Positions 4,319-12,457 of a DNA stretch of 64,000 bases are shown here, one piece after another. Position 1 is the first letter of the stretch. Each line of letters starts with the position of its first letter. The DNA is from Eledone cirrhosa. Lineage: Eukaryota. The stretch is taken from assembly GCA_964016885.1 (NCBI GenBank), contig OZ024749.1, positions 52,390,001 through 52,454,000 of the forward strand, in the 5' to 3' direction. Both the position numbers and the translations under genes were made by a program. The notes under the pieces were generated by a model. That model was not told the DNA's origin. It saw only the letters and a program-made list of their open reading frames with translations, and ran no database searches.

Positions 4319-4553
4319 ATGCCCAAACGTTCTGCAAGTTCCAAAGATGAAGGAAAGGCAGCAGATTCTAAGAAATCAAAGACTCAGGCTCCTCTCTTGG
4401 AGGAAATTCAAGAATCTCGTATAAAATGTGCAAAATCTATTCAAGATTTCAAATTCAATAAAAAACGAGTTCGTTTATTAAACGAAGTTGAAGAATTTCT
4501 TGAAGGTTCTGATGGAGTTCTCTATTGGATGGTTCGTGACCAGAGGGTTGAAG
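4319..4553 (+). CDS. phr: Photolyase coding exon 1 ([10 protein letters not shown]...[10 protein letters not shown])
   Basis: ATG at 4319; basic NLS-like N-terminus; donor G|GTATGT at 4554; candidate acceptors at AG 4226-4227 and 4245-4246. Confidence 0.9.
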
Positions 4554-7500
4554 GTATGTCCATGCTTTATTGTGACTTTTATCAAATATAATAATAGTAA
4601 TACCAGTTGTTTATTGTAATTTCTTTAGTGTTAATCATGTTTAAATTTATAGAACTATCCAACCCACATAAAAATCTCTGATAAGGTAGTGAATTGACAA
4701 TATCGGTAGAGTGTCGGACACCATGCTTTGTGGCATATAGTTACAGCCCTTTACTGTCTGTGTTCGAATCTGACTGGGGTCAACTTTGCTTTTCATCCTT
4801 TCGTGGTCGATAAAATAAAGGATCAGTCAAGTACTGGGGTTGATTTAATCGACTTTCCCCTCTTCCAAAATTCTTGGCCTGGCACCTAAATCAGAAACCA
4901 TTATATTTTTTCATTCCAGATAATTGGGCTATGCTGTTTGCCCAAAGACTCGCCCTTAAAGAAAAGACATCTCTTCATGTATGTTTTTCTGTGGTAGTTC
5001 CATATCTTGAGGCAACCAGACGGCATTACCATTTTCTCTTGAATGGACTGAAGGAAGTTGAAACGGTTTGTTACAATTTTTTTTAAAGTATTTGTTTTCA
5101 TTTTATTTAAAAGATATTAGTATGACGCTAACTACACAGCCATACCTACACCTACACTACCACCTTAACCACACAGCCATACCTACACCTACACTACCAC
5201 CTTAACCACACAGCCATACCTACACCTATACTACCACCTTAACCACACAGCCATACCTACACCTATACTACCACCTTAACCACACATCCATACCGACACC
5301 TATACTACCACCTTAACCACACAGTCATACCTACACCTATACTGTACTAATCTACCACCATAACTACGTCTGTACCTAAGATGGCTGTTCATAATTCTGT
5401 AGTGTTGGCAGTATCGGTAGAGAGTCGGACGCCATGCTTTGCAGCATAGAGTTACCTCCCTTTACGATCTGAGTTCAAATCCCGCCGAGGTTCACTTTGC
5501 CTTTCATCCTTATGGGGTCGATAAAATAAAGTACCAGTAATACACTGGGGAAATTGCTGGCCTTGTGCCAAAAGTAGACACAATTATAAAATTATATTTA
5601 TTGCTATATTTTTCTTCTTTCATCTTCTTTCCACAGGAATGCAACAGTTTAGACATTCAGTTCCATCTTTTGGAAGGGGATCCCTCTTCTGAAGTATCTA
5701 ATTTGGTAAAAGAGTTGAGTATTGGCACCGTTGTCACTGATTTCAGCCCCTTAAAACTACCTAGAAAATGGCTGAGTGATTTATCTGACTCTCTTCCTAA
5801 AAATGTTGGCTTGTGCCAGGTGAGACTGATTGTTCTCATTATGGATATCATCATCATTGCCATCACCATCACCACCACCATCACCACCATTATCATCACC
5901 ACCACCATCATCACCACCATCACCACCATTATCATCACCACCACCATCATCACCACCATCACCACCATTATCATCACCACCACCACCATCATCACCACCA
6001 CCATCACCATCACACCACCACCATCATCATCACCATCATCATCTTTATTTGTCCCTTTTAAACCCAATACATATATAGCAGTGAATACACAAACATCTGT
6101 CCCCTTTTACAACTGGCACATATATAGCAGTGAATACACAAACATCTGTCCCCTTTTACAACTGGTACATATATAGCAATGAATACACAAACATCTGTCC
6201 CCTTTTACAACTGGTACATATATAGCAGTGAATACACAAACATCTGACCCCTTTTAAACTCGATACATATAGCAATGAATACACACACCTGTCCCCTTTT
6301 TAAGGATAATTTATATTTATTCTGTTGGTTTTATCTTTCAGGTGGATACCCACAATATTGTTCCATGCTGGATAACATCTGAGAAGCAAGAATATGGGGC
6401 CAGAACAATTAGAAACAAAATTCACAGCCAGTTATGTAACTTTCTCACTGAGTTCCCTCCAGTTATCAAGCATCCATACAAAGCCAAAAATGAAGCAAAG
6501 GTAAATTCTATTTCTTTAACCCTTTAACATTTACATTACTTTATATTTACTATTATATTTTCACAGTAAACACTTTATCTCACATAATATTGAGTATACG
6601 AGATTTTGATGTTATTTATTTTGAGAACAATACCTTAACAAGAGTATGTCCGGTTATAGCCAGTTTGAACAGAAAGGGGTGGGAGAATTCTGGCTGGATA
6701 TGGCCGGTTTAACCCTTTACCATTTACACTACTCTATATTTACTATTGTATTTTCATAGTAAAGGCTTTACCTCAAATAATATCGAATCTATGAGATTTA
6801 TTTATTTTAATCTATGTTATTTATTTTGAGAACAATACCTTAACATTGGTATGAATGGCTGGTTACAGCCGGTTTGAACAGAAAGAGGTGAGAGGATTTT
6901 GGCCGGATACAGCTGGTTTAAATGCTAAAGGGTTAAACTTTAAATTAAAAATACCATGTTACATTGTAAATGTCATATATAAAATGAAAAAGTAACTTAT
7001 ACTCAAGTAGTAGATATAGAATAGCTTAGTTTTCTGTGTTGTAAATGTTATTTTATGTAACAAACCAGTTTATCAGAGATGAGGAAAGTAATGTCATTAT
7101 CTTCACTCTGTTTTTAAAGCAATTATTCTCTATTTTTCTAGTCAATAGATTGGAGTAAAATTGTTGCCAACTCTGATATAGATGAAAATGTGAAACCAGT
7201 AGACTGGGCAAAACCAGGCACAACTGCAGGTTATACAACATTGGAAACTTTCTGTAACGAACGCCTGAAATACTTTGCTAATGAACGTAATGATCCGACC
7301 AAGAATAGTCTAAGTAATCTTTCACCTTGGCTTCGCTTTGGTAAGATTTATATTTATATATTTTTATATAGTTATGTTGGTACCACACCATCCAGTCCAA
7401 ACTAATGAGGTTGTGTAGGTGTCACGACAAAAAACTAAAACAAAAAAAAAACACTGTCCACGCTGTAATGTGGCCGTGTATGTAACATGGTAAAAAGCTC

Positions 7501-7701
7501 CCAGTCCACACTGTAAATATGGTTGGTGTTAGGAAGGGCATCCAGCCATAGAAAACCTGCCATACAGTCCTATACGAGCGAGACGCGGTCACCCAACCAA
7601 TCTTGCCTCAAATGGGACAATTCCATACTACTACCACTACTACTACTACCACCACCACCACCACCACCACCACTACCACCACCACCACCACCACCACCAC
7701 C

Positions 7702-7751
<50 letters not shown>

Positions 7752-10700
7752 CACCACCACCACTACTACATACAGGACCTCCAAGAGAAATTTTGCAAGG
7801 CAGTACAAGACCCTTTTGGGGCCCAAAGCAGGAAAAGATCTTTCTCAAAATGGATATTGCATGGTTGCTGTGGGGCCTCGGAACAAAGAAACGGCTGGAC
7901 CCCACCTCTCATAGGCCCTGTTTACATCACTTTACTTCCCTTGTACCTGACACTTCCTCCTTGTTTCTGTAACAGGTCACATATCTCCACAGAGATGTAT
8001 ATTGGTTGTTAAAAAACTACAGAAGTCACACAAAAGCAGTGTAGATGCATTTATTGAAGAAGCTGTTATACGGAGTGAATTGGCAGATAATTATTGTTAT
8101 TATCAGAAGAATTACGACAACATTAATGGTAAGATTTAGCTTTTCTGTCATTGATTCTGTAGAATTATCATTATCTAAACTGGAATTATCATTATCTAAA
8201 CTCTAATTATCATTATCTAAACTCTAATTATTATTTAAATTGAAATTACCATTATCAAAACTGAAAAAAATCATTATCTAAACTGGAATTATCATTATAT
8301 AATCTGATTTATTTAGATTAATGTCCTCACTTTGGTTATTATAATCACCACAACATTTGACCTCTGACCCTTGCCAAAACTATTTCTGTATTTCTCAGGA
8401 GCGTATGAATGGGCTCAGAAGAGCTTGAAGCAGCATACTATGGACAAACGGGAATATATCTACTCAAAGGAAAAGTTTGAGGAAGGTAAAACACACGACC
8501 AACTCTGGAATGCTGCCCAAGTAAGAAGAATATGGCAATATATTGCTATTTTCTGTAACATGAGTTTCATTTTTGTTTTATTAATGTTGTTATTAATGTT
8601 TTTTTTTGTATATTTTCTTTACATTCATCATCATCATTATCATCATCGTTTTTACGTCCATTTTTCTATGCTTGCTTGGGTTGGATGGGTCCTTCTCAGC
8701 ACGCCATCTCTCACTCACCGTGTTACTTAGTCATCTCCTCAGTGAGTTTCAGCAATTTGAGGTCAGCTCTCACCACCTCTGCCCAGGTCTTCTTTGGTTT
8801 ACTTCTACTGTGGCTTCCTTCAACTGGTATTTCCTGGCACTTCTTCACCCAGCAATCATCATCCATGCACATCACATGTCCTGCACACCACCTCAGAGAC
8901 CTCTTAAATCCAGCTTCTCCCTCAATTCATCCAAACTCTGATTTTCTCTCACATTTATGTTGCACATCCAACGAAGCATTGTTACTTCATTTAATATTTT
9001 TTTAGGAATTACTATGTGTATGTGTAACCTTTTACTATGTATATGTGTATGTTTAACCTTTTACTATGTGTATGTTTAACCTTTTACTATGTATATGTTT
9101 AACCTTTTCCACACCATATTTCTAACGAAATACTGAGTATTTCAATAAATTAATAAAGAATTATGAGGGCTTTGTTAAAATTATTATTTCATTACTGAGA
9201 TGTTTGTAACATAACAGGATTTTATTTCAAATAATCTTGGAAGATTTAATTGAAATATGAACACATTAAAATGTCTGGTTTTGTTTTATAGAATCAGATG
9301 TAGTTTTGGGTGGGTTGGTATTAAAAACAGTTTAGTTGTCCTACCTGGTCAGTAAACTTCATGTTATTTCGAAGAATTATTTCTCTATTTTCAGATACAG
9401 CTTGTTAAAGAGGGTAAAATGCATGGTTTCCTGAGGATGTACTGGGCCAAAAAAATTCTAGAATGGTCACCTAGCCCTTCTGATGCTCTGGAGATTGCTC
9501 TGTACTTAAATGACCGATATTCTTTAGATGGCATTGATTCCAATGGTTATGTTGGTAAGTATTTCTCTAAATATTCTTGAACATTCAGAATAGAATAGAA
9601 ATTCTTCTCAGATAAATTTAATGTAGGTGTAACTTCTGATAGATAAACCTCCTCATATAGTCTGTGTTAACCCTTTCATGACCACATTTCTAATGAGATA
9701 CACTCTATTTTAATTAATGAAGAATTTCGAGGGATTTACTAAAGTTATTAATGATTTCATTACTAAGATAGTAACTTAATGTAGGGCTCTTATATAAAAT
9801 TATGTTGGAAGATTTTAATTTAAATTGGAAACCTTTAAAATGGATGGTTTTGGCTGGATTGGTAACTAAAAGGTTACTGTAGGTATAACTTCAGTTTTAT
9901 AAACCTCATTTAGTCTGTGTTCTGCAAGATTTCTTGGTATATATTTCACTATACTATTAACCATTTTGATACCAAACAAACTGTAACCACACCTGGTTCT
10001 GTCTTACAAAGTTGTTTGTTTTAAAGTGGTTTTATTTATCTGAAAACCTTCCATTATAATTTAAGTATGAACCTTTATTAAGTTATATTCCAAACACTAG
10101 ATTAATGATGAAAAACTTAGTTATATTACAAAACACCCCCATTTAAATGTTTTATTGTTTTCAAAATTATTTGGAAATCATAAGCAGTGTCTTTCATTGG
10201 AGATATGTTAACATTGCTGTTGAATTTATATTTCTTTTGTTTCCCCTAGAATTGCTATTTATTGTCTCTTTGTAGGGTGTATGTGGTCAGTTTGTGGCAT
10301 TCATGATCGTGCATGGGGGGAACGAAAGGTCTTTGGCAAGATTCGAATCATGACATATGAAGGCTGTAAGCGGAAGTTTGGTGTCGATGCATACATTACT
10401 AAATATTGCTCCAAGAATTCTAAAACAGGATAAAGTCCGACTCCCTTTCACTTCCATCTTTGTTCAAAATGTTTGTAGAAAGAGATTTTCTTTTTTGTTG
10501 TTGTTGTTGTTGTCTCCTGGCTTTATATGTATGTGTATGTTTATGTATGTATGTGTGTGTGTATATATGTTTATGTATGTATGTGTGTGTATGTATGTTT
10601 ATGTATTTATGTGTTAGTAATGTTGCTACTGTGGTAGAGAATAAATAAAATAAATAAATAACTACACTGCCTCAGTGTGAGTATGTCTTTGTGTATATGA

Positions 10701-11548
10701 GTGTGTCAATGTATGTGTGTGTTTGTTTATGTATGTGTGTTTTCAGTAAGTTTTTTTAAATTATATTTTTCAAATATTTAGTTAGATATTCCTTTCTATT
10801 AACTTCAAGTTAAAAGTTATTAAACATTCTTTCCATGTCTGGGGAGAAAGTTCCACATTTTTCTTCATTTTATTTCCTTTTCTCTGTAATATTCGTCAGA
10901 CATAGTTAACAGATCTGATCCGATTATATATATGTGTGTATATATAATGTATATATATTATTTATATATATATTATAAAGTACCAGTAATACACTGGGAT
11001 AATTGCTGGCCTTGTGCCAAAAGTAGAAACAATTATTTATATATATATTGGCAGGGACTGGCAGTATCAGTAGAAGGTCGGACACCATGCTTTGCAGCAT
11101 AGAGTTACGACCCTTTGTGGTCTGAGTTCAAATCCCACCGAGATTAACTTTGCCTTTCATCCTTAGGGGGTCAATAAAATAAAGCACCATTAATGAACTG
11201 AGATAATTGCTGGCCTTGTGCCAAAAGTAGAAACAATTATATATATGTGTGGTTGAGATGCTGTTTGGCATCTCTTTTGGTTGTTTTTATTCATGTTAAA
11301 TATTTAAGTATAGGATTTTGTGGGGGGATTACATTGTCATCAGTGTATTCCTTAAATCTTACATCTTATGTTTTTTTTCTTTTTGTATCTTTTCTTCATC
11401 TCTAGGCTGTATGTGGTCCATCTGTGGAATACACGACCAAGGTTGGGCTGAACGACAGGTTTTCGGCAAGATCCGTTTCATGAACTTTAATGGATGTAAA
11501 AGAAAATTTGATGTGAACAAATATATAATGCGTTATAAGGCCAAGTAA
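4319..11548 (+). CDS. phr: Class II CPD photolyase gene (deoxyribodipyrimidine photo-lyase): 8 shared coding exons plus two alternative last exons; 504 aa (9a) or 499 aa (9b)
   Basis: Exons 4319-4553, 4920-5065, 5637-5819, 6342-6500, 7142-7340, 7976-8128, 8399-8520 and 9395-9554 (1357 nt) join in frame through GT-AG introns to 10276-10433 (total 1515 nt) or 11406-11548 (total 1500 nt). Class II motifs present: [70 protein letters not shown]. Confidence 0.97.
4920..5065 (+). CDS. phr: Photolyase exon 2 (DNWAMLFAQ...GLKEVET)
   Basis: ttccag|AT acceptor, donor GT at 5066; phase matches exon 1. Confidence 0.93.
5130..5342. repeat. 37-bp minisatellite (intron 2)
   Basis: ccacacagccatacctacacctacactaccaccttaa at 5169, 5206 and onward. 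Confidence 0.9.
5637..5819 (+). CDS. phr: Photolyase exon 3 ([12 protein letters not shown]...VVTDFSPL...GLCQ)
   Basis: Pyrimidine tract with cacag| acceptor; donor CAG|GTGAGA. Confidence 0.93.
5848..6300. repeat. (CAC/CAT)n tract followed by a 49-bp minisatellite (intron 3)
   Basis: Direct reading; units start at 6069, 6118 and onward. Confidence 0.9.
6342..6500 (+). CDS. phr: Photolyase exon 4 ([10 protein letters not shown]...EYGARTIR...EAK)
   Basis: tttcag| acceptor; donor AAG|GTAAAT; 53 codons. Confidence 0.95.
6516..6936. mobile_element. piggyBac-like (TTAA) MITE, tandem dimer, in photolyase intron 4
   Basis: ttaa-CCCTTT...AAAGGG-ttaa ends; second unit starts at about 6709. Confidence 0.7.
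7142..7340 (+). CDS. phr: Photolyase exon 5 (SIDWSK...WAKPG...[10 protein letters not shown])
   Basis: ttttctag| acceptor; donor G|GTAAGA. Confidence 0.93.
7976..8128 (+). CDS. phr: Photolyase exon 6 (GHISPQRC...[18 protein letters not shown]...); missing from the ORF track
   Basis: aacag| acceptor; donor G|GTAAGA; translated by hand. Confidence 0.93.
8399..8520 (+). CDS. phr: Photolyase exon 7 (GAYEWAQ...[10 protein letters not shown])
   Basis: ttctcag| acceptor; donor CAA|GTAAGA. Confidence 0.95.
9395..9554 (+). CDS. phr: Photolyase exon 8 ([24 protein letters not shown]...[16 protein letters not shown]); FAD-binding core; missing from the ORF track
   Basis: ttttcag| acceptor; donor G|GTAAGT; translated by hand. 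Confidence 0.95.
10276..10433 (+). CDS. phr: Photolyase alternative last exon 9a ([52 protein letters not shown])
   Basis: ctctttgtag|GG acceptor in the correct phase; open to TAA at 10431-10433; AATAAA cluster from 10640. Confidence 0.85.
11406..11548 (+). CDS. phr: Photolyase alternative last exon 9b ([47 protein letters not shown])
   Basis: Long pyrimidine tract with tctag|GC acceptor in the same phase; TAA at 11546-11548; AATAAA at 12085. Confidence 0.92.
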
Positions 11549-12043: not shown

Positions 12044-12457
12044 ATGAAAAATGTTTCTATTTTCCTTCTCTCAGGGTTATTTGAAATAAAACAAAATAAA
12101 ACAACTATATTTTAATTATGTGTTTTAATTAAGATTGTTGATGTATGTAATTACAATTGTTAATGTGTTAATGTATGTAATTATAAGACAGCCAATTAAC
12201 AGAGTCGTTAGAATATTGGCCCTGGAACCAACTTTGTGTTTCATCGTTTGAAGAATCTCGTTAACTTTAATAAGTCATTAAATGAAACAATAATTGTTTC
12301 AGAAAGAGAATTTATTCATATAAAAAAGAACAATAAATTTTTAATTAAATTTTAGTAAAAGACATTTTATGTTGTGGAAACTTGGTGTTCTTGAAAAACC
12401 AGTTTAGGAAACAGTTATAGAGTTCACCCATTAGCATTTACATTATTCTATATTAAA

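Follow-up and report, generated by a model that had tools for sequence, protein, structure and literature searches.

One gene, two endings: in the octopod Eledone cirrhosa, the gene for a class II cyclobutane pyrimidine dimer (CPD) photolyase has two candidate last exons, and the locus raises the question of whether it makes two different repair enzymes. The gene lies in a window of 64,000 nt of E. cirrhosa contig OZ024749.1 (52,390,001-52,454,000, forward strand); all positions below are those of the window, and all features of the gene are on its forward strand.

The gene and its two last exons

Eight shared coding exons (4319-9554, 1357 nt), separated by introns that are all of the GT-AG type, end in phase 1 and can be joined to either of two homologous terminal exons. 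Joining to exon 9a (10276-10433) gives an open frame of 504 amino acids, and joining to exon 9b (11406-11548) one of 499, each closed by a TAA stop of its own. A search of the genome with the last exon returned just these two segments (2/2 candidates). The gene model thus confirms what a sequence-only reading of the window had claimed, namely two homologous terminal exons after exon 8 with the same phase, intact frames and separate stops. The same reading called them mutually exclusive, a term that needs correction: under the definition in PMC8373072 they are strictly alternative last exons, because both carry a stop, whereas classical mutually exclusive exons are internal exons that join a common downstream exon.

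The two exons align without gaps, with 94 of 143 nt identical (66%). Thirty of the 46 aligned codons specify the same residue, 16 through a different codon and 14 through the same one (4 of these being Met or Trp), and the remaining 16 differ. Over 43 codons the proportion of synonymous differences (pS) is 0.86 and that of nonsynonymous differences (pN) 0.19 (Fisher p 2e-10 on rounded counts), and the 300 nt flanks of the exons share no homology beyond simple repeats. The earlier claims of mostly different synonymous codons for shared residues and of no indels hold in these counts, as does the conclusion drawn from them: with orthologues in three further species, exons 9a and 9b are an old duplication, both intact, in phase and under purifying selection, and not a decaying or assembly copy.

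Exon 9a has its best match in isoform X1 of Octopus bimaculoides. In the protein cluster to which X1 belongs (n=11), each of three species is represented with both tails, O. bimaculoides by XP_052830650/651, O. sinensis by XP_029648244/245 and O. vulgaris by CAI9736512/511, whereas Argonauta hians has a single model, of the 9b type. An orthologous 9a, which the sequence-only reading had proposed to seek in related species, is therefore present in gene models of three Octopus species. The orthologues of 9a are P0003, P0011, P0012 and P0142, and those of 9b are P0017, P0015, P0016 and P0013. The photolyase core of the window shares 85% of its residues with Octopus and 81% with Argonauta. Exon 9a of the window matches the Octopus 9a tails at 38-40 of 44 residues and exon 9b the Octopus 9b tails at 38 of 44. 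Conservation among octopods is thus no lower in the last exons than in the shared ones (86-91% vs 85%), and the first 44 residues of 9b show no differences among the three Octopus species. The Octopus X1 and X2 models have 0/408 differences in the core and 16/44 in the tail.

The chance that the two last exons are an assembly artefact or a recent local duplicate is practically negligible. The region is rich in repeats and no single contig spans the whole stretch, which would suit such an origin; the 66% nucleotide identity, the saturated synonymous sites and the unrelated flanks speak against it, a sister pair confined to the window species is rejected (approximately unbiased (AU) test, p 0.037), and the occurrence of both tails in three other species refutes it outright. 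Exons 8 and 9a are also covered, at similar depth and without variant letters, by DNA contigs of a single sample, from which the assembly itself may derive.

Class II membership and the shared core

The NCBIfam model TIGR00591 (phr2, cut-off 550) gives 699 bits for O. bimaculoides X1, 710 for X2 and 701 for P0142; these scores come from orthologues, and the window core is 85% identical to the Octopus proteins scored. The AlphaFold model of O. bimaculoides X1, which is of the 9a type, has a mean predicted local distance difference test (pLDDT) score of 91.1, with low-confidence blocks of 54 and 69 in the loop discussed below. Compared with the Protein Data Bank (PDB), its ranks 1-44 are all class II photolyases (TM-score 0.84-0.87 by query).

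Exons 1 to 4 (4319-4553, 4920-5065, 5637-5819 and 6342-6500) were placed by the gene model and by tblastn with O. bimaculoides X2. Residue numbers here and below are those of the Methanosarcina mazei enzyme MmCPDII, counted by hand from the alignment. Exon 5 (7142-7340; gene model and alignment) contains the equivalents of R256 and N257 and has Arg at the usual H272. Exons 6 (7976-8128) and 7 (8399-8520), both placed by the gene model and the MmCPDII alignment, contain the equivalents of E301 and of Y345 and W360, respectively, and exon 8 (9395-9554), the last shared exon with its phase-1 donor, those of M379, W381, W388 and N403, with Ile at the R411 position. The residues of the tryptophan chain, W360, W381 and W388, are thus present in exons 7 and 8, as is N403 (mapped by hand). 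The lesion-pocket residues R256, N257, E301, M379 and W421 (the list in PMC6126647) are all present in the window gene, as read by hand from alignment and translation. W305 is replaced by Arg, as in rice and other molluscs checked.

H272 and R411 are presumably residues of the 8-hydroxy-5-deazaflavin (8-HDF) antenna motif, reportedly described by Kiontke in 2014, and with Arg at 272 and Ile at 411 the window gene lacks that motif. If they are indeed antenna residues, the antenna of the octopod enzyme has probably been lost or altered. The Arabidopsis class II enzyme binds no known antenna (PMC13769073), so the motif is not required for class II membership. Both R411 and P413 of the MmCPDII DGRDPNG motif are replaced in all cephalopod sequences (exon 8), and the H272 position (exon 5), Arg in octopods, is His in 187 of 207 other sequences and Arg in 1. 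In exon 6, three cephalopod sequences have Ser for the second Arg of the RRELAD motif, a change absent from two other molluscs.

The loop encoded by the last exon

The last exon begins at G418 and contains W421 and the bubble-intruding region. W421 stacks on the dimer, D428, W431 and R441 form the bolt of that region, and R429 of MmCPDII touches the unpaired adenines both directly and through water (PMC6126647). The proposal that this segment contacts lesion and DNA is correct to the extent that the exon does encode these DNA-contacting residues. All four of W421, D428, W431 and R441 are present in both exons, and position 429 carries in each one of the residues (R, Q, M or H) usual for a bubble-intruding region. 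Exon 9a has R429 (10308-10310), A430, G432, I442 (10347-10349) and T444 around them, and exon 9b Q429 (11438-11440), G430, A432, F442 and N444.

Six residues are fixed in the five 9a rows and absent from the three 9b rows: R429, A430, G432, I442, T444 and K460. The 9b states opposite those in the loop are Q/M429, G430, A432, F/Y442 and N444. Ile at 442 occurs in 0 of 241 distinct non-cephalopod segments (48 motif-less proteins dropped), and N444 in 101 of 104 non-cephalopod rows. The residues at 429 and 430 vary together: R is followed by A (RA) in 34 of 40 segments, Q by G (QG) in 169 of 170, and M by G (MG) in 25 of 25. RA is commonest in prokaryote-type segments (23/37) and rare in eukaryote-type ones (5/185), types that were assigned by a rough sequence rule in a segment set biased to query matches. 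In Octopus spp. the 9a exons also have Ala in place of G425, which is nearly invariant, and Ile in place of F437, which is invariant.

The suggestion of two enzymes with different substrate-contact modules therefore stands in part. Two isoforms are modelled in related octopuses, but the lesion-pocket and bolt residues are identical, so that 9a and 9b are not wholly different modules. The difference lies in the replaceable plug residue 429 and its neighbours, and the divergence is one-sided, with 9a as the derived copy.

Age and direction of the divergence

Mean identities to 27 outgroup animals are 32-33/44 for 9b-type tails and 26-29/44 for 9a-type tails, from which 9b is taken as ancestral-like and 9a as derived. 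A further 9a-type tail comes from P0142, a Logan cluster of 8 members and 41 contig records, with longest contigs of 1.8-2.2 kb, whose core is 69% identical to the window gene. On the shared exons it is sister to the octopods (SH-aLRT 100; quick tree, 37 rows), and it probably represents a cephalopod outside the incirrate octopods, a squid or cuttlefish. All 5 full-length members continue past the exon 8/9 boundary and end in a tail of the 9a type. The remaining 3 are fragments that end where intron 5 begins, which suggests that the long members are spliced RNA. A search of 50% clusters with 9a yielded no more cephalopod fragments among the best 150 of 771, and no cephalopod sequences were found in the paper supplements searched; squid or cuttlefish sequences may be present in the supplement of PMC9498864, which lay outside that search.

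The 9a tails group together (SH-aLRT 95). Besides the rejected duplication within the window species, a duplication inside the octopods after the Logan split is 18.8 log-likelihood units worse and is not rejected (AU p 0.111), and the same holds for orthology between the Logan tail and 9b (not rejected, AU p 0.105); with only 44 columns these tests have little power. The five shared derived residues favour a deep date of duplication. A prokaryotic source of 9a through horizontal transfer, which its HDRAW motif brought to mind, was discarded, as 9a keeps a eukaryote-type exon start and the intron position, and RA also recurs in other eukaryote-type segments (5/185).

Splice and polyadenylation signals

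Both last-exon acceptors consist of a pyrimidine tract and TAG|G, with 14 (9a) and 16 (9b) pyrimidines per 19 nt. The seven constitutive acceptors of the gene have 13-17, so that the tract and AG noted earlier before each exon are present at a strength within the constitutive range. A further AG with a good pyrimidine tract (10248-10249) lies 26 nt upstream of the 9a acceptor; its use would lead to a frameshifted stop. It is possibly a competing 3' splice site giving an unproductive splice with a short truncated product. AGs 20-25 nt upstream are found likewise at 3 of the 7 constitutive acceptors. The exon 8-9a joint is absent among the listed contig rows of three runs from one sample, contigs that look like DNA and are uninformative on splicing.

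Two AATAAA motifs follow each exon, at 10640 and 10649 after 9a (10640-10654, with GT-rich sequence beyond) and at 12085 and 12095 after 9b (12085-12100). The sequence-only reading had cited these candidate poly(A) signals. They are indeed present, but they are weak evidence for polyadenylation, as the motif is frequent by chance in the region: 348 of 1275 windows of 250 nt (27%) and 665 of 1268 windows of 600 nt (52%) contain it.

Two enzymes or one

Both isoforms are very probably made in octopods. If the transcript stops at the proximal poly(A) site, exon 8 would be joined to 9a; if it extends further, to 9b. Both products would carry bound flavin adenine dinucleotide (FAD) and cleave cyclobutane dimers. 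In 9a the plugging Arg may contact the unpaired bases opposite the lesion, like R429 of MmCPDII, and the Gln or Met of 9b would do so otherwise. Affinity, turnover or the preference for particular dimers (TT, TC, CT or CC) and DNA contexts might differ as a result. In support of this reading can be listed the intact frames, the contrast of pS 0.86 and pN 0.19, the two-tail models and the identity of their tails to those of the window, the 9a-type Logan contigs, the phr2 scores, the residue roles given in PMC6126647, the covariation of 429 and 430, and the snail pairs described below. Taken whole, the proposal that the octopod gene makes two active repair enzymes whose bubble-intruding loops engage opened DNA differently is one towards which the residues and models tilt the balance slightly. 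Several observations weigh against it. The two-tail Octopus records are automated isoform models; models of this sort usually rest on RNA-seq. The models and spliced contigs that bear on exon use come from species other than E. cirrhosa. A 9b-type tail was not found among the 5 full-length members of the Logan cluster, so that this lineage may use one tail only. Clustering of the fixed changes is modest, as 5 of the 6 fall in the loop, which occupies 21 of 44 columns (p 0.07), and no role of I442 or T444 was found in the literature consulted. Finally, R429 is replaceable by Gln, Met or His (PMC6126647), so that the R, Q and M states are ordinary and may be functionally equal.

This last point leads to the view, rather unlikely but substantial, that both isoforms exist and are equal in catalysis, with the second exon kept for its 3' untranslated region (UTR) or extreme C-terminal tail, with effects on tissue, light response, mRNA stability or organelle targeting. 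The UTRs of 9a and 9b are unrelated, the tails are unlike in length and sequence, each of R, Q and M occurs naturally at 429 (PMC6126647), and rice CPD photolyase has been reported in nucleus, mitochondria and chloroplasts (PMC7694213, PMC12707071). Catalytic equivalence leaves unexplained the five fixed changes at otherwise conserved loop positions, among them Ile at 442 and the loss of N444, and their conservation between octopods and the distant Logan lineage. It is improbable that only one exon matters, whether 9b is a slowly fading relic after replacement by 9a or 9a is poorly spliced in E. cirrhosa through the competing AG at 10248-10249. The Logan lineage with the 9a type only (5/5), the sole Argonauta model with 9b only (1/1), that AG itself and the Octopus changes at G425 and F437 could be read in this way; yet conservation of the two last exons among octopods equals that of the shared ones, and 9b is identical over its first 44 residues in three Octopus species. 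A change of substrate class in 9a is very doubtful, be it to dimers in single-stranded DNA, looped DNA or RNA, to cover for the loss of CRY-DASH and of (6-4) photolyase, or to binding of damage without repair. The gene losses described in the next section would fit it, but every duplex-binding bolt residue is kept in 9a, which moreover resembles at 429/430 an archaeal enzyme solved on duplex CPD DNA. To our knowledge, repair of (6-4) lesions by a class II active site would be unprecedented.

Repair photolyases in cephalopods and parallels in snails

Coleoids have one phr each and no CRY-DASH or (6-4) photolyase, and land snails are mostly without the latter two as well (PMC10733189). Searches of the E. 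cirrhosa genome with PF03441 and PF00875 found two cryptochrome-type loci only; they missed the photolyase gene itself, so that they are insensitive to split genes and weak evidence of loss. One of the two loci (L003:1375-3057, minus strand, contig C12) is an intronless cryptochrome-type open frame of 560 amino acids, Drosophila-like by eye, and the other, on C11, has its coding sequence divided among exons.

Of 52 listed members in ten clusters from other molluscs, 45 contain the last exon (15 of the 73 members of the oyster cluster being listed). Among these members the tail type is single in 8 clusters and not in 2, those of Bradybaena similaris and Physella acuta. The Bradybaena models P0175 and P0449 (BFZ00295.1 and BFZ00296.1, with consecutive locus tags) have 4 differences in 602 positions, all in the last exon and including Q429H, and may represent an independent young duplication of the same exon. 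The Physella paralogues P0239 and P0453 (XP_059175004 and XP_059174994 at this locus), each on a contig of 264,135 bases, have 7/408 core and 6/44 tail differences, including a change from QG to RA like that of 9a. Among 356 close pairs outside the cephalopods these two alone are outliers (p 0.0008 and 0.003 without correction, for pairs that are not independent), and the tail-only divergence in snails is a lead, not a result. As Bradybaena is a land snail whose models differ only in the last exon, its pair could be counted in favour of a new substrate for 9a, but neither Bradybaena nor Physella was found in the available supplement of PMC10733189, so the losses reported there do not cover them. 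Another pair (JGI; P0005 and P0247) was rejected as an exon swap, as it has 43/408 core differences and is ~10% divergent throughout; it carries RA in one member and MG in the other at 429/430. P0023 from Armadillidium nasatum is a 696-amino-acid model in which one photolyase C-terminal half follows another; annotation has probably fused two tandem genes here.

A broader conjecture, unlikely as a whole, is that coleoids have run two functionally distinct enzymes from a single photolyase for ~250 million years or more by swapping the loop, that snails have repeatedly done likewise by exon or gene duplication, and that QG versus RA at 429/430 would be a recurrent switch of substrate range.

Relation to known systems

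Exons 9a and 9b complete proteins with the FAD-, lesion- and bolt residues of known class II CPD photolyases (TIGR00591; MmCPDII, PDB 2XRZ/5ZCW; rice, PDB 3UMV), whose fold is also that of the O. bimaculoides X1 model. At R429, A430 and G432 the 9a form resembles MmCPDII, and at Q429 and G430 the 9b form resembles rice and most animals. Unlike known class II enzymes, the gene holds two alternative bubble-intruding regions, with I442 and T444 in 9a; further departures are the replacement of R411 in all cephalopod sequences and of H272 in octopods.

A duplicated last exon with alternative splicing and polyadenylation belongs to a described class, the C-terminal substitutions derived from tandem exon duplication (Martinez Gomez et al. 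2021, PMC8373072), which likewise produce homologous C-termini via alternative poly(A), as in GNAO1 and FBLN1. Such events are rare, old and conserved, and the catalogue in that paper comprises 236 human events; here, unlike there, the protein is a mollusc DNA-repair photoenzyme, and what is exchanged is the loop with which it plugs the opened duplex. The locus has the structure of this class, two homologous 3' coding exons in tandem with the same phase and separate stops. Bearing on the use of both exons in transcripts are automated models of both in three species and the probably spliced 9a-type contigs of the distant lineage.

The sequence-only reading knew of no description of this arrangement. 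A literature search, with subscription journals mostly outside it, found, among the papers listed, no title or abstract on two cephalopod photolyase tails or on a duplicated last exon in any photolyase, and the available parts of PMC10733189, PMC9498864, PMC7553075 and PMC10354468 do not mention the two tails. The tails themselves are already in RefSeq and GenBank as automated isoform models: the Octopus X1/X2 records, which are database records only, show the same two tails on an identical core. One survey removed isoforms (PMC9498864), and PMC10733189 lists one phr per coleoid. Alternative splicing of a class II photolyase has been reported in rice (Hirouchi 2003, as cited in PMC7042379), and the citing passage gives no sign of a duplicated last exon. 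The feature is real, old and conserved, a known mechanism in a known enzyme family whose combination was not found described.

The role of single side chains in stabilising the unpaired bubble has been described as inadequately addressed (PMC6126647). The isoforms form a natural swap experiment, with an identical core of 453 residues and an Arg-type or a Gln/Met-type loop, both kept by selection, and their comparison would directly test what position 429 and its neighbours do. The two tails also correct the count of one photolyase per coleoid and bear on the repair of UV damage in shallow-water cephalopods without CRY-DASH and (6-4) photolyase. Should the two isoforms turn out to be equivalent, the case would be one of an ordinary duplicated last exon.

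Two diverged copies of one repeat flank exon 8 (9217-9271 and 9785-9839), the downstream copy under very high contig depth. SINE-like (short interspersed element) copies recur through the locus, one of them, with an AATAAA at 11173, between 9a and 9b.

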